NCBI GenBank assembly: GCA_963727525.1
Contig: CAVSGO010000003.1
Coordinates: 1-64,000, forward strand
DNA: 64,000 bases
From: an uncultured bacterium
Lineage (GTDB): Bacteria > Krumholzibacteriota > Krumholzibacteriia > LZORAL124-64-63
Direction of reading: 5' to 3'
The notes beneath the pieces were generated by a model. The model had not been told where the DNA came from. It was given only the letters and a program-made list of their open reading frames with translations, and ran no database searches. The translations under genes were made by a program, and so were the position numbers. Below, piece after piece: positions 23,815 through 45,352 of this stretch. Position 1 is the first letter of the stretch; the number at the start of each line of letters is the position of its first letter.

Positions 23815-23941
23815 TCTTCACAGGTGTGCCTCCGAGACAATGCTGGAGAGCGCACCATTGCCGTCGAAGCTCCAGGGTCGGCCGACATGGACGACTTTAA
23901 GTTTGGTGGTCGGGCCTGAATTGGATTCAGAAAAAGGGTTG

Positions 23942-24349: not shown

Positions 24350-25331
24350 CTACCTGAGGGTTTCCAGCGCCTTCCCAATCGCCGCGGCCCTAGGTCTTGG
24401 CTTCCGAGCATTCAGGACCTTCCACTGGAGCGGCGGCCACTTCCCCAGACGCTCTCGCATTTCCGCATCCTCGGGGACCAGGAGGTCCAAACGCAGGTCC
24501 CCCACTTGCAGGCGGTCGACGAACTCCCGCTCGGAGTCGTCGAGGTCGAGCAACGGCGCGACGGCGCTCCAGGCGCTATCGATGAGTTCGCCCCGGTCGA
24601 TCTTCACCTGCCCGCCCAGCATCGGCACGAGCTCGGCCTCGATGTCGATAGCACGAACCCGCTCCATCCGCTCGCGTCCGTACGCGTGCAGGGGATGATC
24701 GAGGGTCCCCGTGAAGGCGACCACGAGCTTCTTGAAGGACTGGACTGCTCCAGAATGCCGAACCTGCCTGAGGCAGGCGGATCACGTCGAACAGGTCGCG
24801 TGACTTGCACCGGTCCAGCAGAGCGCAGATCTTCCCGGCGGCGATCTCAGGCAGTCCGCATAGCTGAACATCGGGTTGGCCCAGGTCCCCAGGTTGCCAC
24901 ATCGCCGCCGTCCGCAAGGGGGCCAACGGGAGACGTTGCAGGAAGTTCAGGTCGATTTCGATGCGATCAGGCGACCCGGCCGCGCTGACGTAGTTGAAAT
25001 AGAGCTTCCGACCCGCAATCTCATCCCGGGACCGCTGGATCGCGTACTTCCGCTCGCGGGCGATCGCCTCGACGGCCCGTTCCACGTCGGGGCGGGCTCG
25101 GAGCATCGCCTCCCGGTCCAGGGCCCCGATGTAGTTGAAGTCCAGATCCACGGACAGTCGCGGCGGGGGACCATCGAACAGATTGAGCGCGGTTCCGCCC
25201 TTGAGCGCCAGAACGCGCGAGAGCAGCGGGTGCCGCGCCACCGCGGCCGCGACCTCGCCGAGGCGGATGACCTTTTCCAGCGGTCCTGGCGGGAAGCCGC
25301 TCTCGGCGGACAGTGCAGCTGATCCGATCAC
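24350..25331 (-). CDS. AbiEii/AbiGii-family nucleotidyltransferase toxin (frameshift ~24750)
   Basis: LEKVIRL, LALKGGTALNL, RLSVDLDF, EIAAGKICALLDR..SRDLFD; C-terminal WPPLQWKVLN. Confidence 0.85.
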
Positions 25332-25334
25332 GGT

Positions 25335-25412
25335 CCATGATCACCGCCGTCAACAACATCATCATCACAACAACATCATCAACAGCAGCAGCAACATCAT
25401 CAACAACACCGT
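25335..25412. repeat. Low-complexity CAA/CAT/CAG tract at the AbiEi-AbiEii junction
   Basis: caacaacatcatcatcacaacaacatcatcaacagcagcagcaacatcatcaacaac inside GC-rich coding DNA. Confidence 0.7.
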
Positions 25413-26250
25413 CGCTAAGCACGCCTCTTTGCAGATGCGCGGGAACGACGAGATTCCAGTCCTTGGCCAACACCCCTCCCCGCTGGCCAGGTACCAGGTA
25501 GACCCGGGTCCGAGGCCGGTGCTTCTGGAAGTCTCCCAGGACCGACGCGTCCAGGAAGAGGTCCTCGAGCCGCCTCTGCAGGTACCACCCGACCGCCGCC
25601 CAGAGGCGCCGGTTGTCGTGGGCGCCCAGGATCTCCTTGAGCGCCTCCGGATTCAGCGTGGCGAATCCGTCCATCGACTCCACCAGCTCGTCGAGGCCTC
25701 CCACCAGGCTCAGTTCCCTGAACCCGTCCACGAGGGTCCGCTCGGGCGTCGTGACCCGCAGGGTCCTGCCCCCGCGGGAAACCTCGGTCGTCCAAGGGAC
25801 TTTGGCCCCCTCTCCCGACGAACGCGCCTTGGCTCGAGGCCGTGCGGCCTTCGGGTGCGAAAGGAACTTGATCGTGGTCCGCCCTACCACGACGGGCGAA
25901 CGAGGGCGAGCCGTGCAGACGGTGCAGGTCCACCAGACCGAGTGCCCCTGCCCGAGCAGATCGAGGGCCGAATGATAGGCGAAGACCGCATCGGGCCGGA
26001 TGGCCGCGGCGGCCAGGAAGGCATCCGGTTCGTAGCTCTCAGGGGCCACGCCCACCGGGACGGTGGCGTAGACGCCATTGGCCAGGCGTTTCAGTCGCCC
26101 CTGCTGGAGGTAGTAGCGCACGCGGTACTCGGCGAGGCTCTTCTCGCCGCCCAGGTGCCGGGCGAACTCCTCGACCGTGAAGACCCGGTTCAGATCCATG
26201 AAGTCGGTCGTCCGCTGGGCATCCTGTTGCTGTTCAGCGCGATTTCTCAT
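25410..26250 (-). CDS. AbiEi-family type IV TA antitoxin / transcriptional regulator (stop obscured by the low-complexity tract)
   Basis: RVFTVEEF, GRLKRLANGVYA, AVFAYHSALDLLG, RVTTPERTLVD and KDWNLVVP; directly upstream of abiEii. Confidence 0.8.
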
Positions 26251-26315
26251 AGATTTCTTATCGGTTTCCTTCCCCAACAACAACACCCCGATCGCCATCG
26301 TTTCTGTTGGGCGCC

Positions 26316-26342
26316 AAAAGTGATAAGATTTTTATCACTTTT
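26316..26342. promoter_or_regulatory. Palindromic operator between the divergent AbiEi genes
   Basis: AAAAGTGATAAGATTTTTATCACTTTT is a near-perfect inverted repeat; AbiEi proteins are known to autorepress through promoter inverted repeats. Confidence 0.6.
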
Positions 26343-26406
26343 TAGCCTGAACAGCAACAGTCTGCAGGCCGGGGTAAAAGCCGTCAACAGATCATTTGGC
26401 GGACCA

Positions 26407-27263
26407 GTCCCGGATAGAATCCCCAGCACTTACCCACAAACGCTCGCCGGTCGCCGTCCAGACCGCCCTGCGCAGGCTGAAGGAGCAAGGCAGGATCGTC
26501 TCCCCCCGGCGCGGCTTCTACGTCGTCGTGCCCCCCGAATATCGCGCGACGGGATCGCTCCCGGCCAGCTGGTTCATCGACGACCTCATGCGCCACCTCG
26601 ATCAGCCCTACTACGTGGGCCTGCTCAGCGCCGCGGCGATCCACGGCGCGGCCCATCAGCAGCCCATGGTCTTCCAGGTCGTGACCGACAGGCCCACCCG
26701 CGAGATGCGCGCCGGCAAGGTCACCATCCGGTTCTCGATGAGCGGCAAGGTCGAGCAGATGCCGACGACCGGAATCCAGACCGAAACGGGCACGATGCGG
26801 GTGGCCACGCCCGAGACCACCGCGTTCGACCTGGTCCGCTACCAGGCCGCGGCCGGGCACCTGGGCAATGTCGCCACCGTCCTTGGCGAGCTGGCGGAGC
26901 GCATCGACGGCCAGGCTCTGGTGAAGATGGCGCACCTGGTGAAACTTCCGGACGTCCAGCGCCTCGGCTACCTGCTCGATGCGGCTTGGAGAAAGGGAGC
27001 TCGCCGCTCCGCTGGCGGAGTGGCTCAAGACCCGGAATCCAAGGGTGGTCCCCCTGCTCCCCGGAGAGCCGGCGGCAGCCGAGATCGATGATCGCTGGCG
27101 CGTCCGTCCCCCCGTCTCGGCCGCGGCGCCTCGCACCGGCAGCCGAGGGAGAAGCCGCCCTCACGGAGCGGCCCGGAGACCCGTGGAAGGGGCTGAAACG
27201 ATGACGATCCCCGTCCTGGATAGAATCCCCAGCACTTACCAACAAACGCTGGGAATTCTATCC
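26407..27263. repeat. 38-bp direct repeat (26407-26444 and 27213-27250); the second copy extends into an inverted repeat
   Basis: GTCC(C/T)GGATAGAATCCCCAGCACTTACC(C/A)ACAAACGCT with 2 mismatches; copy 2 continues GGGAATTCTATCC, complementary to its own 5' part. Confidence 0.8.
26441..27130 (+). pseudogene. Second AbiEi-family antitoxin; N-terminally truncated, frameshift ~26985, no cognate toxin
   Basis: ALRRLKEQGRIVSPRRGFYVVVPPEY, YYVGLLSAAAIHGAAHQ, VATPETTAFDLV, QRLGYLLD; DDRWRV in another frame. Confidence 0.75.
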
Positions 27264-27740: not shown

Positions 27741-28727
27741 TTACAGATCGCCCTCGCCGAGCACCGCTGCGAGCGCATCGGCCATGCGAGGATCGAAGAC
27801 GATCCGCTCTTGCTCCAACCAAAGACCGCGTGCGGCGAGATCGCGAACTCCGGCCGGGGCGAAGCCGAGGTCGAGGTCCGATGGCCATTGTGCCCGGAGA
27901 CCGCAGGTGTCCGCCAGTTCGAACCAGAAATCCGGCAGGAACCACTTTAGGTGCGGTGCCTGTCGACGGAGGTGGAGCAGAATGCGAACGCCGTTCGGGT
28001 CGATGTCGCCGAAGTGGATGACGGGGATGTCCGCGAGGCGGTCGAACAAGTGGCTGACGGTGGCCGTATCCCAGCCGGGTACGTGAGCCAAGAGCCAGCC
28101 CGGGGGGGCTGGGAGGTCGCGCCAGGCGCCCAGGTTCTCGATGAGAAGCACGACGCGAATCGCACCCTCGAAGGTCAAGTCGTCCAGGAACGCTCGCTCG
28201 GGGATCGACACTTCTCCCAGGGCTGCGGCGGTTGCGCTGAGATTGACGGGGCCGGCCTTTGTTCGGGCCCACAGGCCGGCGGGGGGGCGTAGTCGGATCG
28301 AGCCGTCGTGCGTCGGGGCGGTGGTGCCGAGCGCATCCCGGCGCACGTCCGTGAGGTCTGCTTTCGAGTGTGGCGCCGTCAGAGCCGCGGCGGTACGCCG
28401 ATTGATGTGCCTCGGCAGGTCATGGATTCCGGCGGCCCGTAGGCGGTCGAGAAGGCGGCCGTAGCCTTCCGGAGTCGGTGGCAGTCCCGCAGTCACGAGG
28501 TCGGCGAGTACATCTCGCCAAGTCGGCCAGACGCGGTCGATCAGGCCGGCCAGTTCGCTTCGGCGCTCCTCGACCACGCCGATCTCGTCTCGGCGGCCGG
28601 TGGCTCGTGTCCAGGACAACTCGGCGAGGACGCCGTAGGCCTCGGCTTGGGCCCGCCGGCGCTTGAGCGTGCCGCGCGAGAGCAGCTCGAGTAGCGCCAA
28701 GCGCGCGTTGTCGCTGTCCCAGATCAC
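27741..28727 (-). CDS. JetD-like Toprim-domain nuclease (DUF2220/DUF2399-like)
   Basis: VLLIENLGAW, VIHFGDIDPNGVRI (Toprim E and DxD) and WLEQE. Its GTG overlaps the mukB stop. Confidence 0.8.
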   Translation of the reverse strand: MIWDSDNARLALLELLSRGTLKRRRAQAEAYGVLAELSWTRATGRRDEIGVVEERRSELAGLIDRVWPTWRDVLADLVTAGLPPTPEGYGRLLDRLRAAGIHDLPRHINRRTAAALTAPHSKADLTDVRRDALGTTAPTHDGSIRLRPPAGLWARTKAGPVNLSATAAALGEVSIPERAFLDDLTFEGAIRVVLLIENLGAWRDLPAPPGWLLAHVPGWDTATVSHLFDRLADIPVIHFGDIDPNGVRILLHLRRQAPHLKWFLPDFWFELADTCGLRAQWPSDLDLGFAPAGVRDLAARGLWLEQERIVFDPRMADALAAVLGEGDL

Positions 28728-31700
28728 GCCTCGATCCTCGTTCTGCGCCCACTGACGAGCACCTCTTCGTGTCCGTTAGCGTCGATGCGCCGCACCAGAC
28801 GATAGGTGGTGTTACCGTCTGCCCTCGCGACCTCGGGCGCGGCGATCAGGAGCTGGAGGTCGAGAGTCTGACACAGGTCGAACAGAACGCCGAGGTTGTC
28901 GTGGGAGAGCCGATTGGCCTCGTCGAGAAACAGAAAGCGCAGCGAGCCGTGGGCTCGCTTGCCGCGAAGGAGGTTCGCGTCCCGCTCCCACTCGGTGAGC
29001 ACCACCATCATCAGGGCGGCGCCCACGCCAATGGCCTCGCCGGTGGAGAGTCGCGTGGGGTTGGCGATCTCCCAATCCGAGCCGGCGTTCCGGCGGACCT
29101 CCACCTGCAGGTGGACGTATTCGCGGTAGTCCAGCAGGCGCTGCCCGCTACCTCGACCCCCACCGTAACGCCGGAAGATCTCGTCCAGTGCTTCCTCGAT
29201 GGGCATGTTCTCCTGGAAGAGCAAGCCCTGCACCGCACCCTCGCGCATGGCCCGCAGCACCTGCTCCATGCGTTCCACGGGTCGCACCTTCACCCGGATC
29301 CCCTCGATACTTCCGAAGCTGACGCCGTTGAGGTTCTTGTTCAGGCGGTTTACCTGGCCCCGCGCCTTGCGGACCTGGACCTCGATGCCCCGAGCCACAT
29401 CCTCGCTGGCGCCACGCAGATCGTCCTCCTGCCGCGCGAGACGCTCTTCGAGTCCCGTCAGCTGATCGCGTAGTCGCAGCAGCGCCTCCCGCGGGTCGTC
29501 CACCTCGGCCACCTGCGCGGGCAGGCGTCGCCGCAGCCAATCGCGTACGGCCAGCCACAGCTCGAGGTAGACATCGGCGAACCTGAGGTCGGCACCGTCG
29601 CCGTCGCGCTCGGCCATGGCGAGCAGAGTCTGCGTGCCATGTGCCGCACGAAGTCGCTCGACGAGCACCGCCCGCTGCTTGTGGGCCTCCTGCACGAGAT
29701 TGACGTGCCCGCGAATGCCGCTGACATCGCTATCGCCGATCGATAACACCGTGGTGGGCAGATTGTGGTCCTCGACCGCGGCTCGGAGGCGTTCCCAGCG
29801 TTCGAGTGCAGGCGCAGCCTCACGGCGTTCGGCGGCGACCTTTTCCGCCGCCTGCTTGCATTCGCGATCGGCCTGGGCCCATTCCGCCTCGCGGCGGCCC
29901 TTGGTCGTCTTGAGGTCATCGAGCGTCTGCGCCAGCGCCCTCATCTCGACGCGGAGTCGTTCCAGTTCTTGCTGTGCGTCTTCGACGGCCGCTTCGGTTG
30001 GATCGGCGACGTCCATTTCAGTGAAACGTTGCTCGGCGGCGCGGAGTTGCTCCACCGCCGCGCGCCGCCGGCCGTCGGCATCATGCCACGCCGTGGTCGC
30101 CTGATCGAATGCGTCATCGGCGGCCTGGGAAGCTGCCTCGGCCTTGCCGAGCGCCGCCTCGGCCCGCCGAAGCTGCTCCTCGAGCCCGGGAACGAGGGCG
30201 CGGTTCTCCTCGAGTTGTCTGGGCGCATCGTCCCAGCTCAGCGCCTCGGCGTGGGCAGAGACGTACTCCATGGCTTCAATCGCCGAATCCAAACGGCCAC
30301 GTTCGTGAGTAAGCCGCTCAAGCTCGGCCGCCAGGGTCGCGACGTCGGCTTCCGATAGGGGAAGCCGGCGGAGCACGTCGAGTTTGTCCTCCACGACGTG
30401 TGCCGCATCGGAGCAGCGCCGCACCTCGCTCTGCGCCGAAGTCGCGGCTTCATGGTCTTGCGCGAGTATGTCTCTGCGGTGGGCATGGTCCGGTGGATCG
30501 AGCAGCACGGCCATGCCAAGAAGACCGCGGAGACCCGCGATGCGGGGCCCCCGCTGACGCGCGGCTTCCCGGTGCTGCGACGATGCGGTGCGATGGATCT
30601 CCTGCTGGACCTCGACCTCCACGAGCTGACGTCGAATCGTTGCGAGCTCGGGCGCGGGATCGCCGGCTAGCCAAACGATCTGTCCTGCGAGCAGGGCCTC
30701 ACCGTCCGCGGCGAGGCGCTCGAGGCCACGCCGGTCCGCTCGCGCAACCTCGATCTGGCCATCCAGTTCGTCGGCCTCCACGCGGAGCTGCGCTGCGCGC
30801 GCTTCCCGAGCCTTCCGGCCAAGGCGCGGACGGTCCGGAATCCGCGTGACGCGCGTGCCCCGGACCTCGGGCACGACAACGTCTCCCGTTTCGGTTCCCT
30901 GACCAAGCCCAGCCCCGGCAAGCCGGGCAACGTCCTCATCGCGGCCTACGAGCCAGATGTCGCGTAGCGACTCTGGCCGGTCATGGACATCAGCCGCCGC
31001 CTTCACGGGGTCATCAACCACGAGCGCCTGTACCAGCGGGCCCAGTTGCGCCTCGAGGATGCCGGCATCTTCCAGACGAATGTCCTCGAAGGCGGTCGCG
31101 AGCAGCTCTGCGCCCAGCGCGTTCTTGATGCGCAGGAGTTCCGCGTCGAATGGCCCTCCGGCGGCCAGCAGTTCGCGGGCCTCGGCGTGCAGGCGCTCTC
31201 GCTTCTCGACGAGGGACAATTCTCGTGTTCTCGCCTCGCTCAGGCGCGCGTTCACAACCTCTCGCGCCGTTTGCAGATCTGGGAGTGAGGCGACTGGGCA
31301 GGCGAGTTCGTCCGCCAGGCGCTGGGCGCGGGTCGAGAGTTCACGCCAGGTCGGTTCGCGCGCGCTGAGCTCCTTCTGCCGCACCCGCGCCACGTCCAGC
31401 GTACGTCGACACTCATCGGCAGCCGAACGTGCGTCTCGCTCCTCATGCAGGAGCTGGTCACGTTCCTGCTCCGCGCGCTCGAGGTGTTCCGTGATCTCCT
31501 CGCGAGCGGCTCGCTGGCCCGATAGGGCCAGGCCAAGTTTGCCGAGACGTTCTCTGGCCTCGGCCTGTCGATCGGCGAATTTGCGCGCCTCGGCGAGGTC
31601 CGCCGAAATGGTGCTCAGTCGCGCCGCGAGAGCTTCGAGGTCCCGGAACCGGCGAAGCTGGTCGATCGCGGCCCCGTGAGCGCTATCCGGCGCAATGGTC

Positions 31701-33148
31701 GTGCTCGCCAGGTGCTCCAGGGCCGCAAGGGCCTTGGCATGCTCGCGACGGTGTTCGTCGGCATCAGCGATGTGCTGTCTTGCTTCCCGCCGTGCATGAT
31801 CCACCCGCTCGAGATCGGCCCTGGTCCTGGGCATGTGGGCCGCCATGGCGGCGACCGTGAGGTCCTCGGCCCCGAGCAGCCGCTCGGCCTCGCCCTTGCG
31901 ACGGATCACCTGCCTGTAGGCTCCTGCACGAAGATGCAGCTCGTCGTGACCGCGCTGAAGGTCGGCGAGCCCGGCGCCGGCGCGCTTGTGGTCGTCCTGA
32001 CAGCGGCGCAGAGTCGTTCGGCAGCCGGTTCGCACGCCTTCCCGGGCGACGCGTACATCTGCGGCGGCTTGCGCTTCGGACTCGGCAGAGGCGAGTTCTT
32101 CGCGGCGTCGGGCAACCTCACGGGTGGCCTCGAGAGCGAGCCGTAAACGACGGAGCCCGTCCTCGGCCCTATCGGCTTCCTCGACCACGGCTTCCTGTCG
32201 CGCTCCCTTGGTGCTCAATTCGTCGCAGACCCGCGTAAGCAATTCGTTGGTCTGGTCGAGTTGCTTCTGCGCCTCGCGGTGCGCATTCTCAGCTTCGGTG
32301 AGGCTGCGCCGTCGCTCGTCGGCACGCTCGCGGGTGGCCAGGAAGGCCGCGGCGAACATCGTCTGACCCGACTCGAAGACGCCACCGATCTCGCGCTCCA
32401 ATCGTTGCGATTCCTGAACCTCGGTGCGAGTACGTCGGCACGCATCGAGGTTGGCCTTCATGCGCTGGAGCGTGTCCGCGAGCCCGCTCTCCTCCTTCAG
32501 GAGGAAGGACCGCAACTCCGTGGTGAGAGCCCGGGAGATGCCGCCGGTCATGCTGGTGCGCAGCATCTCGTTGAGCTTGTTGCGCTCCTCGTCCGTACCG
32601 AGGCGTAGCGGCGTGACGCCGTGGTCGAAGAGGGCCGCGAAGTAGTCGCGCGCGGTGCCGAACACCTGCATGCGCGCGCCGACGCGAGCGGCGTTCTCAC
32701 GCAGCTCGTTCAGCTCGGGGACGGCCTCGTGGTCGCCTTGGGAGAGCAGCAGCAGGTCCTGGAGCCGCACGTCTCCGGCGAGGCCCGAGATGATGAACGG
32801 AGTGGGCTCGACGGACGGCTCGCCCTTCCGTTCGAGGTGCACGCCCGCGACCAGGCGCTTTTCGTCCGCGAGAACGAAGTCGATGGCCGAATAGGCTGGT
32901 CGGCCCGGCTCGCCGAGGCGTCCCCAGATGCCCTTGTCCCCGCCGGTCGCGCCAGTCTCGCCGAGGTTCGTGAAACGAAGCCTCGACATGTCGGGCAAGA
33001 GCACGACGTAGGCGGCGATCATCACCGTCGTCTTGCCGGCGCCATTGGCGCCCTCGAGCGCGGTCACATTGCGGTCGATGAGGTACCGTTCGTAGAAGAC
33101 GCCCTTCCAGTTGACGAGCGCGAGGGCCTGGGCGCGTGTACGGCTCAT
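28724..33148 (-). CDS. mukB: MukB-family SMC ATPase (1474 aa)
   Basis: LALVNWKG, LEGANGAGKTT, DKGIWGRL, GGISRALT..LRSFLL, long coiled coils, LLDYREYVHL, LSTGEAIG, FLFLDEANRL and QLLIAAPE..GNTTYRLVR, all co-linear with E. coli MukB motifs. Confidence 0.93.
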   Translation of the reverse strand: MSRTRAQALALVNWKGVFYERYLIDRNVTALEGANGAGKTTVMIAAYVVLLPDMSRLRFTNLGETGATGGDKGIWGRLGEPGRPAYSAIDFVLADEKRLVAGVHLERKGEPSVEPTPFIISGLAGDVRLQDLLLLSQGDHEAVPELNELRENAARVGARMQVFGTARDYFAALFDHGVTPLRLGTDEERNKLNEMLRTSMTGGISRALTTELRSFLLKEESGLADTLQRMKANLDACRRTRTEVQESQRLEREIGGVFESGQTMFAAAFLATRERADERRRSLTEAENAHREAQKQLDQTNELLTRVCDELSTKGARQEAVVEEADRAEDGLRRLRLALEATREVARRREELASAESEAQAAADVRVAREGVRTGCRTTLRRCQDDHKRAGAGLADLQRGHDELHLRAGAYRQVIRRKGEAERLLGAEDLTVAAMAAHMPRTRADLERVDHARREARQHIADADEHRREHAKALAALEHLASTTIAPDSAHGAAIDQLRRFRDLEALAARLSTISADLAEARKFADRQAEARERLGKLGLALSGQRAAREEITEHLERAEQERDQLLHEERDARSAADECRRTLDVARVRQKELSAREPTWRELSTRAQRLADELACPVASLPDLQTAREVVNARLSEARTRELSLVEKRERLHAEARELLAAGGPFDAELLRIKNALGAELLATAFEDIRLEDAGILEAQLGPLVQALVVDDPVKAAADVHDRPESLRDIWLVGRDEDVARLAGAGLGQGTETGDVVVPEVRGTRVTRIPDRPRLGRKAREARAAQLRVEADELDGQIEVARADRRGLERLAADGEALLAGQIVWLAGDPAPELATIRRQLVEVEVQQEIHRTASSQHREAARQRGPRIAGLRGLLGMAVLLDPPDHAHRRDILAQDHEAATSAQSEVRRCSDAAHVVEDKLDVLRRLPLSEADVATLAAELERLTHERGRLDSAIEAMEYVSAHAEALSWDDAPRQLEENRALVPGLEEQLRRAEAALGKAEAASQAADDAFDQATTAWHDADGRRRAAVEQLRAAEQRFTEMDVADPTEAAVEDAQQELERLRVEMRALAQTLDDLKTTKGRREAEWAQADRECKQAAEKVAAERREAAPALERWERLRAAVEDHNLPTTVLSIGDSDVSGIRGHVNLVQEAHKQRAVLVERLRAAHGTQTLLAMAERDGDGADLRFADVYLELWLAVRDWLRRRLPAQVAEVDDPREALLRLRDQLTGLEERLARQEDDLRGASEDVARGIEVQVRKARGQVNRLNKNLNGVSFGSIEGIRVKVRPVERMEQVLRAMREGAVQGLLFQENMPIEEALDEIFRRYGGGRGSGQRLLDYREYVHLQVEVRRNAGSDWEIANPTRLSTGEAIGVGAALMMVVLTEWERDANLLRGKRAHGSLRFLFLDEANRLSHDNLGVLFDLCQTLDLQLLIAAPEVARADGNTTYRLVRRIDANGHEEVLVSGRRTRIEA

Positions 33149-33837
33149 CCGCCCGCCTCCTCCTCTTCGTCGTCCGTTCCGTTGTTCTCGCCATCGGTGT
33201 CATTCTCGTCGGCTTCGCCCAGGACGACCTCACCGTCTTGAACGAGACGCTCCAGAGCCGCATGTCGATCGCTCAGGTCCCGCACCGGCTCGGCAAATCG
33301 CATCAAGGCCGGCCGCAGGCGCAGCATGCCATCGTCCACCGCGTCGATGAACCCCAGGTCGGCCAGCCGCCGGAGGGCCTCCGCGACCTTCGTGCGCACC
33401 GTCTCGGCGGCCACGCGCTCGTCGTACCTTTTCTTTCGCGGGTTCAGGGTGCGCACCAGCGTTTCCGTTCCGAGTAGCCCCGAAAGCCGCTGAAGCAGGG
33501 CGTCCCGCGGGACGACGCCGCCGTGCTGCAACGTGGCGGGGTCGAGATACATCAGCGCCAGCGTCTGGCCGACGAGCATCTCCCCTGCCGACAGGTGGCG
33601 GCGACCGAGCCGTTCCCCCGAGGGGAGAAGGTAGAAGTACCCATCCGATCGCTGCACCAGCTCGCAACCGAAGCGGCGATAGAACGATTCGAGATGGTCG
33701 AGGGCGTCGACGAGGTAATCGTAGGTCATGCCGTCATCGCGACCGATATGCCGACCGCGGCGAAGTGCGAGGTCCACTTCGGGAAAGAGCTCGTTGGCAA
33801 TGACCTCCTCGAGGGATTGGAAGCCGGAAACCGTCAC
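33145..33837 (-). CDS. mukE: MukE-family KITE subunit
   Basis: IANELFPEVDLALRRGRHIG, FYRRFGCELVQRSDGYFYLLP, LSAGEMLVGQTLALMYLDP, ALRRLADLG and an acidic tail. Confidence 0.9.
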   Translation of the reverse strand: MTVSGFQSLEEVIANELFPEVDLALRRGRHIGRDDGMTYDYLVDALDHLESFYRRFGCELVQRSDGYFYLLPSGERLGRRHLSAGEMLVGQTLALMYLDPATLQHGGVVPRDALLQRLSGLLGTETLVRTLNPRKKRYDERVAAETVRTKVAEALRRLADLGFIDAVDDGMLRLRPALMRFAEPVRDLSDRHAALERLVQDGEVVLGEADENDTDGENNGTDDEEEEAGG

Positions 33838-35135
33838 GGCGAAGTCTCCTCTCTGGGCAGATCCCAATCCTCCACCTCGAGCTGCGGTTCGATCGGCCGC
33901 CACGGGCGCTCATACGCGCTGCGAACCCGGGTCACGTGTGCCAGCGTGTCGGCCACGCGTCCGGTGATCCCGTACTGCAATTCCGCGGGAAACTCGAGCA
34001 GCACCCACTCGGTGACCTCGGCCAGGGTCGTGGCGCCCGCGGCGAGAGCCTCTGCGACCAACGTCTCGATGGCACGTCCAGTATCGACCGGCTCGACGAA
34101 CTCTGGCGCGGCCTCCCGGTCCGTTCGGAGCCTGGCCACCGGCGGGCGGTCGACTCTAGGTTCAAGGGGGCGTAGCAGCCGGATCGACGGCGTCGCCGCT
34201 ACCAGCAGGTGAAAGGGCGCCGCGGTCCACCCCGCGACCTGGTCACGAAGGCGTTGGCTCAGGGCCCGGTCAGGGTCGAGCCGAACCACGTCGCGCAGGT
34301 AGCGATGCACGTACTGATAGTATTCCGACCACGCGCGCTGCCGTGCACCACCCCAGGCTGCGATGCGGTCGACGTGCTCGATGACTCGCTGCACGGCCTC
34401 TTCGGGCTCAACCTGTTCCGCCTCACCGGCCAATGCCTGGATCTCCTGTAGCAGCGCCAAGAAGTGATGGGTATCGCGCAGCAGGACCTCGTTGAGCTCA
34501 CGCAGCGTGTCCGTGCTCGTCTCGAGCAGCGACTGGCAGCGATCCACGGCACCAAACCAGTCCGCCTGCAGGAGTTTCGCGATCTCCGCCTGGACCTCCT
34601 CCTGCTGGGAGTCGAGCCCGCGTTGCCGCCGTTCGATGCCGCCGACGAGATCTCCAACCGTCACACGCAGCGGGGCTACCACCTGCTGGTGCCAGTCTTC
34701 GTCGTCGACGGCGTGTTTCGCGGCAGCGAGGACTTCCGCGAGCTGGGCGCGCAACGTGCCGGTCAGCAGGGTCAGGCTCTCGCGGGTGAGCGCCTCGTCG
34801 GCGAGAAAATATTCGACGACGGCCGCGGCCAGCCGCGTGAGCGCATACTCGCCCGACCGGACGATGCCCGCGCCGTCGACCCGAGCCAACATGCGCTGGT
34901 CGCGCAATTTCTGGATGGTGTGGGTCGCCCGCGTGCGCGGCCGCTCCGTGCCCGGTTCGACCACGTCGCAGACCTGCTCGAACATATCGACGAGTACGTC
35001 CTCCTCGAACGACGCGAGCGCCGCGCGGTCCGCCCGAAGGTACAGGCTGGCCAGAAAACACAGGTCGATCGTCCTCAAGTCCAGATTGACCCGGTCCCGC
35101 ATGAGCGCGCCGATGAGGGGGTTCGGGTCGGGCAT
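33834..35135 (-). CDS. mukF: MukF-family kleisin
   Basis: LRDQRMLAR, YALTRLA, WHQQVVAPLRVTV, DSQQEEVQAEIAKLLQADW..A...CQSLL..STDTLREL and VRLDPDRALSQRLR. Confidence 0.9.
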   Translation of the reverse strand: MPDPNPLIGALMRDRVNLDLRTIDLCFLASLYLRADRAALASFEEDVLVDMFEQVCDVVEPGTERPRTRATHTIQKLRDQRMLARVDGAGIVRSGEYALTRLAAAVVEYFLADEALTRESLTLLTGTLRAQLAEVLAAAKHAVDDEDWHQQVVAPLRVTVGDLVGGIERRQRGLDSQQEEVQAEIAKLLQADWFGAVDRCQSLLETSTDTLRELNEVLLRDTHHFLALLQEIQALAGEAEQVEPEEAVQRVIEHVDRIAAWGGARQRAWSEYYQYVHRYLRDVVRLDPDRALSQRLRDQVAGWTAAPFHLLVAATPSIRLLRPLEPRVDRPPVARLRTDREAAPEFVEPVDTGRAIETLVAEALAAGATTLAEVTEWVLLEFPAELQYGITGRVADTLAHVTRVRSAYERPWRPIEPQLEVEDWDLPREETSP

Positions 35136-35371
35136 CAGGCCGTTCCAATCACCTGCCGACGTGGCGTGTCGAAGGGGTGGGGCCAATGGGGGGAAGCGCC
35201 CTGGCTGGTTGGCCAGCTCGAGGAGTGTAGGAGCCGGTTATCTGGCATATGTCGCAGCCCGATCTCTCGAAGCGTAGCGCCGCTGACGTGCCGACAGTCC
35301 GGACGATTCTATGGCGAAATCTGTAGGGGGACAACAAGGAAAGGCATGCAGGGGTAGACGATCATCCGGAG

Positions 35372-35425
35372 GGGTCAGCCCCGTCTCGTGGAGGATGTGC
35401 CAGAACCGATTTCGAGGATCGCGAA
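35372..35425 (-). pseudogene. Short scrap resembling mismatch-specific uracil-DNA glycosylase (Mug)
   Basis: PRNRFWHILHETGLTP matches the Mug pattern P.NRFW..L...G.TP; no flanking coding context. Confidence 0.4.
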
Positions 35426-35792
35426 GCATGAAATCTCCGATCTTGGCTCAAATTTTCGAAAACGAGATTCTCTTACAGCGTCGGATTTGGAGCGATACAA
35501 ACTCCAACAATTTGGAGCGTTTTTAAAATACGAAATCAAAATCAGCCAAAATTGAGCAATTCTAGATAGCCTGAAAGATTTGCAAGTTTAGTGGAGCTCA
35601 TTGGGGAGAGAATTAGAGTGCGTGGAATCGCTTGTCTTTAGCACAATTGAATCGATCGGGATTAGAGTGGGCTCAAGGAATTCTATTGAATCACCCCCCA
35701 ATTTGCTGTTTCTGTCTCGTCCCCTTGCAAGTTTTGCAAGATTGCCATAGAATCCGGCTCAGTGGCTTCGGAACTGAAGGAAGAAGAGCAAG

Positions 35793-37373
35793 TTGGCAGA
35801 ACTGAGGGTCAACCCCTACAACCCCGGAAACCCGGTCAAACCGGCCCATTTCGCCGGCCGGACGGCCGAGATCGCGGAACTCGGGGCGAAGCTGGCGGCA
35901 GCCAAGGAAGGGTTCCCGGCCAGCATTTTCGTTCAGGGAGAATGGGGAATCGGGAAAACCTCCCTGCTCAAGAAGATGCACTCCGAATTCAGCAAGCATG
36001 GGGTCGTGATTCGTGAGGATGTGCCGGAGGGGACGGCAGAAACCCAGATTCGCGCTCTCTATCCGGCCATTTTTCAGGACCTGAAGGCTGAAACCGGGAT
36101 TGAGATCGAGGCGAACGCTGAGATCGACTACGACCAGCCTAGAACTCTTCGGATTCTGCTCACGAAGCTGGTCTCCGCCCTTTGGGAGCAGAAGAGCCAG
36201 TTGGCGATCGTCGTCCTCGATAACCTGGAGCGGGCCCAGCCGGAGTTTCTGGCCGGGGTCAAGGATGTCTTCCAGCGAGTGGGCGAGGATGCTCCTCATT
36301 TCATGCTCGTATTCGCCGGGAAGTCATTACCTGGCGCCGGACAACACGCCTCCGACCCCATCGCCCGCTTCTTTCAGACGATCCCGGTCGGACCGATGTC
36401 GGATGCCGAAGCTCTGCAGGCGATTTCCAAGCCCATCGAACTGGACCCTGAATTTCTGATAGATGACGAGGCCGCTCAGATGATCCAGGAGCAAACGGCA
36501 GGGCACCCCTATTTTCTGAAGCAGGTCTGCTCCCACGTCTTCCAGTGCGCCGGCGGCACCGGAAGGATCGATAGGGAATGGCTGGAAAGGCACTGGAGTG
36601 ACGTCGAAGTCAGCCTAGAGGATTCTCGGTTTCGTTCAGAGTTTGTGGACCTCCCGAAGGCGGAATCGACGACTCTGATGTTCGGTAGCCTGCACGGAGT
36701 GGAGTTCCCTCGGTCCGCGGTCGCCGAGCCGAAGGGCTCAACCCTCGACTCCGCTCTCCGTCGTTTGACGAAGGAGCGAGGACTCCTCAGGTCCGCTGCG
36801 CGGGGGATTTACGCATTCTACCACCCCCTGTTCCACGCTTACGTATTGGCCAAGGCCCATGGCGAGGGTCTCGTGGAGCCCCGTGAAGTGGGCCGGTCCC
36901 TCGAGGAAGTCATTGGACAGGGCGAGAGCAGCAACCTGGAGTTCAAGGAGACACTTCAGTTCAATATTGTTACCGAGAAGAAGGACGCTAAACTTGCCAA
37001 CGCCGTATTGAAGACGATCGCGGCGTTCCACAACACCGGTGGCGGGACCCTCCTCATTGGAGTTGCGGACGACGGTTCGGTCAAAGGGCTTGACCGCGAT
37101 CTGAGCTTGCGCCCGCCAAAAAAGAGGAACGATGATCAGTACACCCTTATGCTCCAGGACCTGGTCCACGACAATCTGACGCCCAAGCGCCCCAACAGGG
37201 TTGATATCCGGATCGAGGAACTGGCTGGCGGTAAGATCTGTGTCGTCGACGTTCCCGCGCTCGCTGAAGTCACCTATCTCGGGGACAAGCTGTTCGTGCG
37301 AGATGGCCCCCGGTCTATTGAGCTCGCGGGAGAAGAGATGGAGCGATTCCTGCGGGGCCGGGGCACTGACTGA
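35793..37373 (+). CDS. P-loop ATPase (AAA_16/STAND-like) + winged helix + C-terminal Schlafen/AlbA_2 domain
   Basis: NPYNPGNPV..HFAGRTAE, GEWGIGKTS, IVVLDNLE and TAGHPYFL; C-terminal GESSNLEFKETL, KTIAAFHNTGGGTLLIGVADDG and FVRDGPRS. Confidence 0.85.
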   Translation: MAELRVNPYNPGNPVKPAHFAGRTAEIAELGAKLAAAKEGFPASIFVQGEWGIGKTSLLKKMHSEFSKHGVVIREDVPEGTAETQIRALYPAIFQDLKAETGIEIEANAEIDYDQPRTLRILLTKLVSALWEQKSQLAIVVLDNLERAQPEFLAGVKDVFQRVGEDAPHFMLVFAGKSLPGAGQHASDPIARFFQTIPVGPMSDAEALQAISKPIELDPEFLIDDEAAQMIQEQTAGHPYFLKQVCSHVFQCAGGTGRIDREWLERHWSDVEVSLEDSRFRSEFVDLPKAESTTLMFGSLHGVEFPRSAVAEPKGSTLDSALRRLTKERGLLRSAARGIYAFYHPLFHAYVLAKAHGEGLVEPREVGRSLEEVIGQGESSNLEFKETLQFNIVTEKKDAKLANAVLKTIAAFHNTGGGTLLIGVADDGSVKGLDRDLSLRPPKKRNDDQYTLMLQDLVHDNLTPKRPNRVDIRIEELAGGKICVVDVPALAEVTYLGDKLFVRDGPRSIELAGEEMERFLRGRGTD

Positions 37374-37400
37374 CCCGCTCGAGAAAGGCGGGGCTTTTTC
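37374..37400 (+). terminator. Possible intrinsic terminator
   Basis: CCCGC...GCGGG hairpin followed by CTTTTT, right after the stop codon. Confidence 0.4.
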
Positions 37401-37602
37401 AAAGACGACACGCCAGCCTGGCCTCCCAAACCCTGGCCGGCGTGGCAAGTCGTGGCCGTGTAACATTCCCTTTCTGAGTTTCCTATATCACGATCCAGGG
37501 TCCCAAACTCGATTCCATGGCGGCGGGTCCGACCACTGGTGGTGCGGTCGGCGAGCACCTCGCGAGGGTACTCCAATCGATGGCCATGGGCTGGATGCAA
37601 GC

Positions 37603-38487
37603 GTGAAGCTCTTTCGAGCATTCGCGAGCAAGATCGCCAAGCGCGGCCGGCGCTATTGGCAGCATCAGCTCCTCGAGAAGCTGAACGCCCAGCGATACGG
37701 TGCGCCCGGCTCATTCAATCAAGTCGAGAGACTCGTGTGGTCTCTCGCCGCTGCGCTCGAGAAGCCGACGGCGGCTGAGGGGCTCAGGGGTGCTCAATCG
37801 CTGACGGAGGAGGGGTATGCCACCTGGCTCGAGCGGCTGCGTGAGATCGTCTCGTTGGCCGAGCGGGCCGGCGTGCTGGTGGGACGAGTTCGGATGCTCG
37901 AACGGGAGATGGCCAACCTGCCGAAGTTGCTCGACAGGATCAAGATGGCGACTTCGGACGCCGAGGTACATACGGCCCGGGAGAGCGTGTCCATGTGGAT
38001 GCGCCACGTGAACCTCGTGTTGGCGGAGATGCGTGCGGAGGTCGAGGAGGAATTCCACGTCGATCTCATCACAGTGCTGCCCGATGCGCTCCGTGCCCAG
38101 GCCGGGGCGCTCGCCGCGAGCCGTATTGATGTGACGGTGCAGGGGGTCGGGGTGGAACCGGCGAGCTGGCGGCCCGACACTGGGCCGCGGGTCGTTTGCG
38201 ACGCCGATGATCTGCGGATCGTTCTCGACGAGGTCGTGGGCAGTGCGATCGTGGCGATGGAGGGGGCGGCCCTGCGGGTGTTGTCCATTGACTGGCTTCA
38301 GGGGGACCACGACATCGAGTTGCGCGTCAGGAGCACCGGAAGCGTCGGGACTGAGAACAAGTTTGCGTCCGAAAACGCCCGGCACGGCCTTCGCCTGTTC
38401 ATGGGGGCCACCTGGGTCGCACCGGACCCGTCGGATGGAGAACCGGCCGTCGTGGTGCGGCTTCGGACCGTGGCCGATCACGGTTGA
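37603..38487 (+). CDS. Hypothetical protein with a degenerate HATPase_c-like C-terminus (start uncertain)
   Basis: VVCDADDLRIVLDEVVGSAIVAM, IELRVRSTGSVG and HGL resemble decayed N, G1 and G2 boxes. Confidence 0.45.
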   Translation: MKLFRAFASKIAKRGRRYWQHQLLEKLNAQRYGAPGSFNQVERLVWSLAAALEKPTAAEGLRGAQSLTEEGYATWLERLREIVSLAERAGVLVGRVRMLEREMANLPKLLDRIKMATSDAEVHTARESVSMWMRHVNLVLAEMRAEVEEEFHVDLITVLPDALRAQAGALAASRIDVTVQGVGVEPASWRPDTGPRVVCDADDLRIVLDEVVGSAIVAMEGAALRVLSIDWLQGDHDIELRVRSTGSVGTENKFASENARHGLRLFMGATWVAPDPSDGEPAVVVRLRTVADHG

Positions 38488-38527
38488 TTCCTCGACGGAC
38501 GGGATCACGCGTATTCTCGCCGCCCTC

Positions 38528-41203
<2,676 letters not shown>

Positions 41204-41790
41204 GGGGGGCCTCGCAGCGATCTGGGGTGTCGGGGTTCGCGGCGGCACCGCACTGGTCACGATCGTGATAAGATATGATCAGTCTTGATTTGCGCTCTTT
41301 TTGGGGGGGCTGGAGGCTTCTCGGCAGGGGGGTTGATGGCGAACCCTGCCGTCAGGGCTACGGGACGTTGAACGAAGTCCTCGCGTCGCCGCGTGAGTGT
41401 CGTCCGGATGGTCAGACTCCACGTCTAGAGTTGGGGTGGTCGTACGCCACGCTCAACGCCATCTATGAGAATTCTTGTGTATTCGAACGCCATGACGGAC
41501 TCCTCGTCGTAAGCTACGGTTGTGCAAGTATCTAGCTCAAGTTCTTCTCTTGTATCCAATTCATAGGTGGCGGACCACTCGGATCGTCGTGATCTAGAGA
41601 ATGCTGAATCTATGTAACCCACGCGCATATATAACGATACGAGACGCCTGGCGGGCACTTGAATCGGCATGGCAAATGCCATTACATGAGTTGATGGGGA
41701 AGAAAGCGATTCTCGGCGCACACGCCGTCTCCAGTAACTGAAACGCCTTCTGCTAGACATCGAGCCCGCGTATCAGCTAGCCGGTAGTTC

Positions 41791-44305: not shown

Positions 44306-45352
44306 ATGCGCTCCCTGACACCGTCCTACCTGGACAGTCTCCAGTTCTCTGCTCGGCAGCTCGAGACGTTGAAGCGGATTGGCGAGTACCAGGGCAAGCA
44401 GGTTCTCTACGCGGAGCGGCTGCCCGAGGTGCTCAAGACGATGCGTCGCGTGGCGCAGGTCGAATCGACCGAATCGTCCAACCGCATCGAGGGGATCGAG
44501 GCGCCGCGCCGGCGCATCCAGGGTCTCGTCATCGAGGGGACGGCGCCGCAGAATCGGTCCGAGCAGGAGATCGCCGGTTACCGCGACGCGCTCGCTCTCG
44601 TCCACGAGTCTGCCGACCACATGGAGCCGTCCACGAACGTCATCCGACAGCTCCACACGATCATGTATCGCTACCTCCCGCAACCCGGGGGGCAGTGGAA
44701 GATGGTCGACAACGAGATCGTCGAACGCGACGCCGCCGGCGTCCTGCGCGTGCGGTTCAGACTCGTCCCGGCGGTGGCCACGCCGCAGGCCATGGACGAT
44801 CTGGCCATGGGACTGCGACGCGCCTTGCAGGTCGAGGAGCGTCCCGGGCTCGTGGTCGCGCCCCTGGCTGTGCTCGACTTCCTGTGCATCCACCCGTTCA
44901 CCGATGGCAACGGACGCGTGTCGCGGTTGTTGTCCTTGCTCCTGCTCTATCGCCTCGGCCACCAGGTCGGCCGCTACATCAGCCTCGAACGTATCACCGA
45001 GGAATCGAAGGAGACCTATTACGAGGCGCTCGAGGCGAGTTCGCGTGGCTGGCACGACGGCCGTCACGACGTCCACCCCTGGCTCGACTACTTCTGGGGC
45101 GTCCTGCTGCGCGGCTTTGCCGAGTTCACCGAGCGGGTCGGCGGCCTGAATCAGGGGGCCGGCAGCAAGGCGGCCGTCGTGCGCGAGGCCGTGTCGCGCC
45201 TCGTCGGTCCGTTCGCCCTGGCCGACGTCGAACACGAATGTCCGGGCGTCAGCCTGGCGACGATCAAGCGTGAACTGGCGGCCATGCGCGATGAAGGGTT
45301 GGTGCTCCTCGACGGTCGCGGACGTGGGGCGCGGTGGCGACGGGTGTCGTAA
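44306..45352 (+). CDS. Fic family protein with a C-terminal wHTH
   Basis: SNRIEG motif, HPFTDGNGRVSR, C-terminal PGVSLATIKREL...G.GRGARW. Confidence 0.92.
   Translation: MRSLTPSYLDSLQFSARQLETLKRIGEYQGKQVLYAERLPEVLKTMRRVAQVESTESSNRIEGIEAPRRRIQGLVIEGTAPQNRSEQEIAGYRDALALVHESADHMEPSTNVIRQLHTIMYRYLPQPGGQWKMVDNEIVERDAAGVLRVRFRLVPAVATPQAMDDLAMGLRRALQVEERPGLVVAPLAVLDFLCIHPFTDGNGRVSRLLSLLLLYRLGHQVGRYISLERITEESKETYYEALEASSRGWHDGRHDVHPWLDYFWGVLLRGFAEFTERVGGLNQGAGSKAAVVREAVSRLVGPFALADVEHECPGVSLATIKRELAAMRDEGLVLLDGRGRGARWRRVS

Follow-up and report, generated by a model that had tools for sequence, protein, structure and literature searches.

The question raised by this locus is what a bacterium might do with a protein of 526 residues in which a P-loop ATPase, a winged helix and a Schlafen domain are joined on one chain. 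The gene lies at positions 35793-37373 (plus strand) of a stretch of 64,000 nucleotides, hereafter called the window, which corresponds to positions 1 to 64,000 of contig CAVSGO010000003.1 (GenBank assembly GCA_963727525.1) from an uncultured bacterium of the Krumholzibacteriota. A first-pass annotation, made from the DNA letters and their reading frames, had described the product as a STAND-like ATPase fused to a C-terminal Schlafen/AlbA_2 domain and as a candidate anti-phage RNase. The present analysis points in a similar direction: the protein is probably an abortive-infection tRNase that is encoded by a single gene and controlled by an ATP switch. This reading is carried by the two-module architecture with its motifs in place, a confident predicted fold, an apparently monocistronic layout, the position in a defence island, a patchy and foreign-looking distribution, and the replacement, within the family, of a phospholipase D (PLD)-fold domain by the Schlafen domain. 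Defence itself, tRNA as the substrate, activation by oligomerisation and the nature of the trigger would follow by analogy with characterised systems.

The coding sequence is uninterrupted over 526 codons plus the stop and opens with a TTG codon (P0001 in our protein set). This start is credible, because the homologs begin at the same point, with the pattern M-A-E/D-x-R-V/I-N-P-Y, and because a purine-rich, Shine-Dalgarno-like stretch read from the sequence, GAAGGAAGAAGAG (35776-35788, plus strand), is located 5-17 nt before it. The intact open reading frame (ORF) reported in the first-pass annotation is thereby confirmed. The existence of 13 clusters of full-length homologs, together with G+C contents (GC) at the three codon positions of 0.66/0.40/0.73, as in a coding frame, shows that this is a real gene and not a chance frame in a window of 65% GC; the opposite-strand ORFs that overlap it are the usual shadows of high-GC DNA. 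A candidate sigma-70-like promoter, TTGCAA-17 nt-TAGAAT, is found by consensus match at 35725-35753 (plus strand), and promoter-like sites near the gene number two, compared with 0.5 expected from shuffled sequences. Directly after the stop codon, an intrinsic-terminator-like hairpin of six pairs, five of them G-C, is followed by a T-run (37374-37402, plus strand). It is its position that singles out this candidate, since terminator-like sites overall are not above the shuffles (3 found, 2.9 expected). With a promoter-like site and a terminator of its own, the gene looks monocistronic, in support of the single-gene organisation proposed earlier.

The first of the two modules, residues 2-361, is composed of a nucleotide-binding domain (residues 20-200; 35850-36392, plus strand), which contains the FAGRTAE, Walker A and Walker B motifs and the invariant R192 and is supported by structural alignments, and of a helical lid with a GHP motif, followed by a winged helix that ends in YHPLF (residues 201-357; 36393-36863, plus strand), as judged from motifs, model and structural alignments. 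Pfam AAA_16 matches residues 20-163 with an E-value of 4.3e-13 and 50.5 bits, versus a cut-off of 32.6. AAA_22 is also above its cut-off, over the P-loop region only, and KAP_NTPase (PF07693) scores 35.8 bits versus a cut-off of 20, with its best stretch at profile positions 18-78 of 293, which is again the P-loop region. We take AAA_16, AAA_22 and KAP_NTPase to be members of the P-loop clan, and the LDNLER Walker B of the protein resembles the KAP motif 'DDLDR'.

The conservation of these motifs was followed in an alignment of 60 rows (A2), 50 of which cover the ATPase and 27 of which carry the Schlafen domain. In the GRExE-type motif FAGRTAE (residues 20-26), R23 is kept in 48 of the 48 rows that cover the position, while the lysine K55 of Walker A, GEWGIGKT (49-56), is kept in 49 ATPase rows. 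Walker B reads IVVLDN (139-144, with D143 and N144) and is followed by E146; D143 is present in 50 of 50 rows, as is P239 of the GxP motif, GHP (237-239). The second Walker B position, 144, is occupied by Asn in 22, by Asp in 18 and by Glu in 10 of the 50 rows. YHPLF (343-347) closes the winged helix, and its H344 is found in 39 of 50 rows. In the AlphaFold2 model the winged helix is made up of helix 289-299, strand 304-306, helix 315-328 and strands 332-336 and 339-342. With K55, D143 and P239 kept, ATP binding is very likely judging from the sequence, but fast hydrolysis is uncertain because the second Walker B residue is Asn. The P-loop ATPase, GxP motif and winged helix named in the first-pass annotation are thus each present, in the motifs, in the model and in the structural alignments.

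A linker of residues 358-372 (36864-36908, plus strand), which is the least conserved stretch of the protein (mean match to the query of 0.43 among 11 fused homologs), leads to the second module, the Schlafen/AlbA_2 nuclease domain (residues 373-526; 36909-37370, plus strand), assigned by Pfam, by its motifs and by a structural match to 3lmm_A. SLFN_AlbA_2 (PF04326) covers residues 378-509 (E 7.2e-17; 62.4 bits versus a cut-off of 25.3), and a domain-architecture search, one of the checks suggested with the first-pass annotation, accordingly finds AAA_16 plus SLFN_AlbA_2, both above their curated cut-offs. The E-x4-EFK motif seen earlier is confirmed as ESSNLEFK (378-385), that is, E378-x4-E383-x-K385, and GVADDG (423-428) holds D426. 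Each of E378, E383, K385 and D426 is kept in 27 of the 27 Schlafen-bearing rows. In phmmer alignments to rat Slfn13 (5yd0) and human SLFN11 (7zel), E378, E383 and K385 fall on 'ESxxxEFK' and D426 on the second Asp of 'GVDD', a position that we take to be the third catalytic residue, D252 in SLFN11. These alignments serve for residue correspondence only, the matches of the isolated domain to PDB sequences being weak (best E 0.0044); with the whole protein, the PDB sequence search gave only a marginal match to ORC5 (E 0.058). Both catalytic modules look intact. The AAFHN box at 410-414 is similar to 'SAFAN', a Schlafen box reported in the SLFN-pAgo preprint (10.64898/2026.05.29.728809).

Structure prediction, likewise suggested at first pass, gave a confident AlphaFold2 model from alignment A2, with a mean predicted local distance difference test score (pLDDT) of 94.2 and a predicted TM-score of 0.73. 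Inside the chain, confidence drops only in the linker around 358-372, the internal block with the lowest pLDDT (72). For residues 2-361, the closest structures are the archaeal AAA+ proteins PABY2304 (2qen; Z 21.4, root-mean-square deviation (rmsd) 4.3, 317 residues aligned) and SSO1545 (2fna; Z 20.8, rmsd 4.3, 314 aligned), followed by Orc1/Cdc6 (2qby; Z 19.7, rmsd 6.2, 328 aligned). A second Orc1/Cdc6 structure, 1w5s, matches the ATPase module with Z 17.6 (rmsd 6.1, 328 aligned). Then come, again for residues 2-361, a wheat NLR (9h2l; Z 17.0, rmsd 5.6, 306 aligned), CED-4 (Z 14.3, rmsd 5.7, 308 aligned), MalT (Z 14.0), BrxC (Z 13.4), EfAvs5 (Z 12.9, rmsd 4.0, 264 aligned) and Avs3 (Z 12.4). 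Residues 361-525 match the AlbA_2 protein DIP2311 (3lmm_A; Z 13.4, rmsd 3.5, 143 aligned, 24% identity). Mammalian Schlafen chains are absent among the best 50 matches of the full-length model, a list filled by ATPase matches, so that their absence is no evidence of a difference. Prediction of a two-copy complex of the Schlafen domain (residues 361-526) returned a score of 0.01 versus a mark of 0.42, which is no answer and not evidence either way.

How far the ATPase module may be called STAND-like can be judged from the features that are said to define the class. Reportedly, after Leipe, Koonin and Aravind (2004), these are an hhGRExE-type motif, Walker A and a Walker B with two acidic residues, a GxP motif, a winged-helix histidine, an N-terminal effector and C-terminal repeats. 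The protein has the GRExE-type motif and Walker A, the GxP lid and the winged helix with its histidine. In its Walker B, for which the STAND pattern is hhhhDD/DE, the invariant D143 is followed by N144 and then by E146, and position 144 is acidic in part of the aligned rows. The Pfam STAND models remain below their cut-offs (nSTAND1 19.3 versus 27.1 bits, NACHT 15.4 versus 26.7, NB-ARC 11.4 versus 23.5), as does ATPase_2 (17.8 versus 33.2), and no Avs model occurs among the nine weak PADLOC matches of the protein at E up to 1. No Pfam repeat family (TPR, WD40, LRR, HEAT) matches, and the two modules fill residues 2-525, in line with the earlier remark that sensor repeats are absent. The remark that the domain order is inverted also holds, the effector being placed at the C-terminus, opposite to the STAND layout. 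In its motifs and tripartite fold the module may fairly be called STAND-like, although it sits at the boundary of STAND, ATPase_2 and Orc/Cdc6 proteins. The label given at first pass therefore survives for motifs and fold and not as a family assignment, since no Pfam STAND model reaches its cut-off and the ATPase_2-type and Orc1/Cdc6 structures are closer than the NLRs.

The modular nature of the protein is best seen in its relatives. A group of sister proteins, whose ATPase-winged-helix module is 40-43% identical, ends in another domain, some 150 residues long (L003, L005, L006, L007, L091, L093, P0017, P0018, P0062, P0064 and P0065; the genes span 9989-11536 in L003, 5298-6887 in L005, 9986-11575 in L006 and 9995-11554 in L007). 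Pfam is faint on this domain (PLDc_2 E 0.04-0.06; DUF7931 E 0.014). An AlphaFold2 model built from six sequences has a pLDDT of 81, and Foldseek places it in the PLD superfamily, with matches to FAM83, PLD, TrmBL2, PLD3/4, Zucchini, NucT, Nuc and SauUSI (E 2.4e-7 to 1e-5; for PLD, Zucchini, NucT and Nuc, 2e-7 to 7e-6). The signature of the sister domain is H-x-R-x4-D (or E), in which Arg replaces the Lys of the classical HKD motif. At L003, a GmrSD/type IV-like gene lies directly upstream; it is the only defence-like neighbour at the four PLD-bearing loci scanned.

A maximum-likelihood tree of the ATPase module was calculated from 29 hand-picked rows, comprising 11 Schlafen-bearing, nine PLD-bearing and one effector-less member and eight distant effector-less outgroups. 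All 11 Schlafen-bearing rows form one clade (support 100/99) that is nested in a PLD-bearing grade; the PLD label requires three changes on the tree and forms a single clade in 0% of the bootstrap trees. The outgroup-rooted topology points to one replacement of the PLD-fold domain by Schlafen, to be read with midpoint and outgroup rooting, some long branches and the hand-picked rows in mind. The effector-less member that falls among the PLD-bearing proteins (L092 344-1435, identical to P0019) has an ORF whose stop codon comes immediately behind the winged helix, so that the effector domain has apparently been lost. It is followed by a gene that reads like a class I S-adenosylmethionine-dependent methyltransferase.

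Conversely, among 30 proteins scanned, the closest Schlafen domains (38-46% identical) are found at the C-termini of unrelated partners. Some of these are ATPases, such as nSTAND2 plus AAA_16 (P0126, P0183), nSTAND1 (P0177), AAA_16 (P0195) and a sigma-54-type AAA+ (P0188); others include a superfamily 1 helicase (P0123), MmeI/Eco57I-like restriction-modification (R-M) enzymes (P0119, P0137), an N6_Mtase (P0114) and a GmrSD protein (P0203). A regulator that stays conserved while its nuclease-type ends are exchanged, together with a nuclease domain that recurs in restriction enzymes, is what one usually sees in defence effectors.

Several published systems combine parts of this design. In a catalogue of 5,930 prokaryotic Schlafen (pSlfn) proteins, 69.6% have a defence gene no farther than 10 kb away; of seven pSlfn systems assayed, two protected Escherichia coli, and one cleaves tRNA upon sensing a phage protein (Perez Taboada et al., Nat Microbiol 2026, PMC13056530). 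The class pSlfn15 of that catalogue, 'P-loop_NTPase.pSlfn', accounts for 17 of the 5,930 proteins and has a defence score of 0.94, the class itself not having been assayed (PMC13056530, Supplementary Table 2). The protein studied here shares with pSlfn15 a domain of the P-loop NTPase clan and a PF04326 domain with the conserved Ex4(E/D)xK, and by domain composition it falls within this published bin. The bin is heterogeneous, holding 465-residue proteins from Bacillales, a 686-residue AAA_22 fusion and one SLFN-NACHT protein in the opposite order (PMC13056530). The strings AAA_16, PF13191 and KAP_NTPase have no occurrence in the 17 supplementary files of that paper, which suggests, from the domain labels of the supplement and not from sequences, that our family is not among the 17 members.

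A related composition is that of Avs9, described as AlbA_2-SIR2-NTPase-TPR-OB and toxic in E. coli through its AlbA_2 active site, in a paper that also reports cleavage of tRNA-Phe by SAMD9 (PMC12680541). Like Avs9 and SAMD9/SAMD9L, the present protein has an AlbA_2/Schlafen-like nuclease and a STAND-type P-loop NTPase on one polypeptide. Unlike them, which have about 1,400-1,600 residues, an N-terminal effector, SIR2 and C-terminal TPR and OB sensor regions, it has 526 residues and a C-terminal effector, and Pfam finds no SIR2, TPR or OB match in it. Compared with Avs1-5, bNACHT and SLFN-NACHT proteins, it has the same switch of nucleotide-binding, helical and winged-helix domains, with GRExE-like, Walker A/B and GxP motifs and the winged-helix His, and the similarity of its ATPase module to the NLRs, CED-4, EfAvs5 and Avs3 lies at Z 12.4-17.0. 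Schlafen is, moreover, a known STAND-linked effector (PMC13462974; 10.64898/2026.05.29.728809). The protein differs from canonical antiviral STANDs in that the effector comes last, there is no repeat or sensor region, no STAND Pfam model is passed and PADLOC gives no Avs match; 2qen, 2fna and Orc1/Cdc6 (Z 19.7-21.4) are structurally closer to its ATPase module than the canonical STANDs. It is not a member of Avs, Avs9 or a curated STAND family. With 2qen and 2fna it shares the layout of nucleotide-binding domain, lid and winged helix, whereas these archaeal proteins lack an effector domain. To our knowledge, no function has been reported for either of them.

In its mode of action, the protein may most resemble the oligomerisation-gated Schlafen systems. 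In the SLFN-pAgo 'Schlatpase' RzAgo, ATP binding by a GHKL domain leads to a tetramer in which two single-lobe Schlafens rebuild the two-lobed mammalian nuclease (10.64898/2026.05.29.728809). In Cash (Schlafen-Csx15), filaments induced by cA4 align the Schlafen domains for tRNA cleavage (PMC13462974). The Cash paper also notes NACHT-Schlafen proteins, links over half of the defence-associated Schlafen homologs to R-M or other nucleases, and speculates that Schlafen homologs sense DNA-cleavage structures (PMC13462974). The single-lobe prokaryotic Schlafen is common to RzAgo, Cash and the present protein, an oligomerisation-gated tRNase being the feature of the former two. The differences lie in the regulators: the ATPase of RzAgo is of GHKL and not of P-loop type and its sensor is an Argonaute core with guide RNA; Cash has the Csx15 cyclic-nucleotide pocket as its sensor, and the present protein has neither sensor. 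Searches of the literature open without subscription brought up no description of this family, nor of any small scaffold of ATPase and winged helix that ends in a Schlafen or PLD-fold domain. With the 'P-loop_NTPase.pSlfn' class, SLFN-NACHT fusions and Avs9 in print, the novelty is nonetheless smaller than the first-pass annotation assumed.

On this background the following mechanism can be proposed. The ATPase-winged-helix module would act as an ATP-dependent switch that holds the protein inactive at rest. An infection cue would act on this module itself, as it must because no separate sensor exists, and would cause nucleotide binding or exchange and oligomerisation of the ATPase module. Assembly would pair the single-lobe Schlafens into a two-lobed active arrangement with a cleft lined by a basic patch, where the Ex4ExK/D metal site would cut tRNA, and possibly other RNA, so that translation of host and invader stops. 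We infer this order of switch, assembly and tRNA cleavage because established STAND/AAA+ switches and the characterised prokaryotic Schlafens behave in this manner. As regards the cue, a conserved one (a nucleotide, for instance, or some structure of nucleic acid) is weakly preferred to a phage protein that evolves fast, because the ATPase module is better conserved than the Schlafen domain (81-87% versus 71-77% identity among the five closest homologs) and carries no hypervariable patch: among 11 fused homologs, no hypervariable sensor-like segment was found apart from the linker.

The ATPase-Schlafen fusion is rare and patchily distributed. A word search of 5.8 billion proteins gave 59 matches, among them 13 clusters of full-length fused homologs with 42-81% identity, nearly all from metagenomes. 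An exhaustive HMMER search of 1.84 billion representatives returned 5,917 matches at E up to 1e-3, only eight of which reach E up to 1e-30; those spanning both halves are P0011, P0016 and the fragment P0061, and more distant two-module proteins with 28-31% identity are P0126, P0129, P0183, P0195 and the fragment P0176. Pattern matching across 185,579 species, each represented by a single genome, detected 95 relatives; 80 were retained, and only two of these are full-length fused genes. One, 76% identical, is from a Krumholzibacteriia metagenome-assembled genome (MAG), L001; the other, L002, is 44% identical. Among 40 relatives of the window's genome a single full-length match was obtained, in G013, on the same contig as L002, and a metagenome scan added one fused locus, L090, on a 2.1-kb contig without context. 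In an archaeal (Methanogaster) MAG, L060 (9989-11998), a Schlafen-HATPase_c_4-winged-helix gene is immediately preceded by a 198-residue AAA_16 ORF; the pair may represent a split or degraded form of the arrangement.

Three fused homologs have a readable context, and in two of them a defence system adjoins. The window gene has as its divergent neighbour a complete Wadjet-type operon, JetA/JetB/JetC/JetD (27741-35186, minus strand), which is the Muk/Toprim operon of the first-pass annotation; the L001 homolog is followed on its own strand, after 20 nt, by type I hsdM/hsdS. The L002 homolog is inserted singly among sulfate-reduction genes of the sat/apr/qmo type. This two-in-three association with defence is suggestive, as a count that carries no enrichment test. 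The third-position GC (GC3) of the fused gene is below that of its neighbours in L001 (0.70 versus 0.87-0.98) and L002 (0.59 versus 0.84-0.93), and in the window the gap is modest (0.73 versus 0.78-0.92); lower GC3 than the neighbours fits horizontal acquisition. We have also considered whether the gene is an accessory of Wadjet. JetA is found in 0 of the 40 relatives at E up to 1e-10, so that Wadjet is itself accessory in this lineage, and yet G013 has the fused gene; the gene therefore does not travel with Wadjet, and this candidate was rejected.

Searches of mobile elements complete the picture of the distribution. The 33 pattern matches in viral contigs yielded no confirmed relative and tblastn against 50,697 phage records gave no match; with the queries used there are thus no phage or viral relatives, which says nothing either way about targets. 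Plasmid tblastn matched 45 records, none of them covering at least 80% of the query, and the 15 matches listed of these 45 are all effector-less ATPases with 25-29% identity. Three of the distant effector-less relatives, of about 390 residues, are encoded on plasmids of Pseudomonas oryzihabitans, Sphingobium xenophagum and Rhodococcus fascians (L172-L174), where their annotation says no more than 'ATP-binding protein' or 'AAA family ATPase' and where they lie near conjugation, MvaT/H-NS-like or HU genes.

Taken with the island around the gene, the homolog upstream of a type I R-M system, the PLD-fold effector swap and the published anti-phage tRNases among the pSlfn proteins strengthen the defence function proposed at first pass. 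A number of observations weigh against it. The function of the family is deduced from sequence, model and analogy, and the genomic contexts of fused homologs are only three, one of which, L002, has no defence gene within 14 kb and no PADLOC match on the two flanking genes. No PADLOC, NCBIfam or Pfam STAND match for the protein is above threshold, and only one of four PLD-bearing loci has a PADLOC match among its 4-6 nearest genes. The Asn at Walker B position 144 may mean that ATP hydrolysis is slow or absent. Sensors of phage-protein receptors are usually hypervariable; here there is no such part, and the ATPase is the better-conserved half. Finally, the effector-less relatives in the three plasmid neighbourhoods are solitary, with no conserved or obvious defence partner, and the ATPase module is therefore not defence-specific in itself.

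An alternative to a stand-alone system is that the protein forms a back-up layer, in which the Orc/Cdc6-like module would sense DNA ends or cleavage products of Wadjet or type I restriction and would fire the Schlafen tRNase when the first line is engaged or overwhelmed. The adjoining DNA-cleaving systems of two of the three fused homologs invite this idea, the more so as the 20-nt gap in L001 leaves no room for a terminator before hsdM/hsdS; the window gene, however, has a promoter-like site and terminator of its own, the partners vary (Wadjet, type I R-M, none), and G013/L002 has the gene with neither JetA nor a defence neighbour. DNA-binding Orc1/Cdc6 proteins (2qby, 1w5s) are among the strong structural matches of the ATPase module, and the conserved, non-hypervariable ATPase would suit a conserved cue such as nucleic acid. 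The link of Schlafens to R-M and other nucleases, with the speculation on DNA-cleavage structures, in the Cash paper (PMC13462974) goes in the same direction. Three contexts cannot separate such coupling from ordinary clustering in defence islands, and we regard the back-up layer as unlikely.

Somewhat more doubtful is the proposal that the protein has no part in RNase-based immunity, being either a nucleic-acid-binding ATPase of a mobile element or regulator, whose AlbA_2 domain serves for binding only, or a nuclease that acts on DNA. The effector-less relatives, solitary on plasmids near conjugation, H-NS-like and HU genes, would fit a role of this kind, but no integrase, replication or transfer genes flank the fused gene in the window, L001 or L002. 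One source annotates the Krumholzibacteria homolog P0008 as 'putative DNA binding domain-containing protein', and the nearest AlbA_2 domain of known structure, 3lmm, is that of an uncharacterised protein from structural genomics; against mere binding, the E-x4-E-x-K motif plus the Asp are invariant in the 27 Schlafen-bearing rows, which argues for catalysis. A DNA substrate would be in keeping with the PLD fold of the sister clade, whose nucleases mostly act on DNA, whereas the prokaryotic Schlafens characterised in the papers cited here all cleave tRNA (PMC13056530, PMC13462974, 10.64898/2026.05.29.728809).

A selfish toxin for addiction or competition between elements, that is, a constitutively dangerous nuclease checked by its own ATPase that stabilises the island or excludes rival plasmids, is quite improbable. 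In its favour, the gene is compositionally foreign, sporadic and, in L002, singly inserted in a housekeeping operon region, and its neighbours in the window are Wadjet, an anti-plasmid system, and AbiE toxin-antitoxin genes; against it, no conserved antitoxin-like small gene adjoins it in the three contexts, and the mechanism overlaps that of the abortive-infection tRNase, differing only in the invader acted on.

The abortive-infection tRNase thus remains the preferred reading. Schlafen nucleases have recently been shown to provide tRNA-targeting immunity common to bacteria and humans, and how sensor modules control the nuclease is the next question. The family would be among the smallest conceivable versions, in which an ATP switch of 360 residues is joined by a linker of 15 residues to a single-lobe Schlafen, with no repeat sensor, and the same ATP switch driving a PLD-fold domain offers a natural control. 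The minimal, effector-last and sensor-less layout with its Schlafen/PLD swap is attractive for mechanistic work. If active, the protein would be tractable for questions of ATP-dependent licensing of the Schlafen site, of sensing by a STAND-like core alone and of back-up to DNA-cleaving defences such as Wadjet or type I restriction. Should it prove inactive, or have no part in defence, it would be a warning not to read function off the position in a defence island. In the light of the 2025-26 Schlafen papers it will be no great surprise to the specialist, the general class (P-loop NTPase-pSlfn) being already catalogued, of which the ATPase-winged-helix form with C-terminal Schlafen appears, by its domain composition, to be a variant.

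A further, tentative idea, to which we give little weight, is that of a minimal sensor-less immune switch. The Orc/Cdc6-like module would itself be the receptor, and the conserved cue that it reads would be a nucleic acid, perhaps free DNA ends or intermediates of cleavage by the neighbouring Wadjet or type I restriction systems. Its ATP-dependent assembly would lead to tRNA cleavage, one scaffold serving a PLD-fold nuclease in some proteins and a Schlafen RNase in others. If this were true, the protein would act as a second-layer alarm that plugs into DNA-cleaving defences, and it would show in living form what a STAND was like before repeat sensors were acquired.

Turning to the surroundings of the gene, 606 bp separate its start from that of the divergent jetA, and the shared intergenic region is strikingly AT-rich for this genome; local GC around the gene is 0.605-0.616 versus 0.65 in the window. 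An Rfam scan of 35000-38600 gave no match at E up to 1 and a repeat search around the gene only short two-copy matches that are probably due to chance; neither search points to an RNA partner in the AT-rich leader. A search of sequencing runs found one soil-metagenome DNA run with 0.10 of the words and no RNA run, which says nothing on expression or habitat.

The island around the gene comprises matches to DrmMI/DrmD, AbiEi/AbiEii, JetABCD and SoFic. The Wadjet proteins are JetA (MukF-like, 450 residues), JetB (MukE/MksE, 252 residues), JetC (MukB N-terminus and hinge, 1,474 residues) and JetD (JetD_C/Toprim, 328 residues). The DISARM-type DrmMI/DrmD matches (17316-23821, minus strand) are scattered across several ORFs that overlap and differ in frame: near 19.0 kb the N- and C-halves of DrmMI do not share a frame, another piece of DrmMI is at 17.3-18.0 kb, and pieces of DrmD are located at 20.9-21.2 and 22.1-23.8 kb. 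They are either frameshifted pseudogenes or assembly errors. Remnants of AbiE (24350-27091) consist of a 124-residue ORF whose match to AbiEii is confined to the last third and two AbiEi-like genes (25021-26298, minus strand, and 26396-27091, plus strand), and the AbiEii toxin gene looks truncated in the sequence. Two Fic-domain proteins that match PADLOC SoFic (44306-45352, plus strand, E 5e-31; 48822-50180, minus strand, E 6e-39) extend the island downstream. At 37711-41260 (minus strand) are a 910-residue Ser/Thr kinase with PD40 beta-propeller repeats and, 20 nt downstream of it on the same strand, a 265-residue ORF, convergent with the fused gene, for which Pfam and PADLOC gave no match and an Atlas search was uninformative (best score 0.88). 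Farther away, positions 6001-10000 of the window have a GC of 0.53-0.56, versus 0.62-0.74 elsewhere in the window, and may be another foreign insert.

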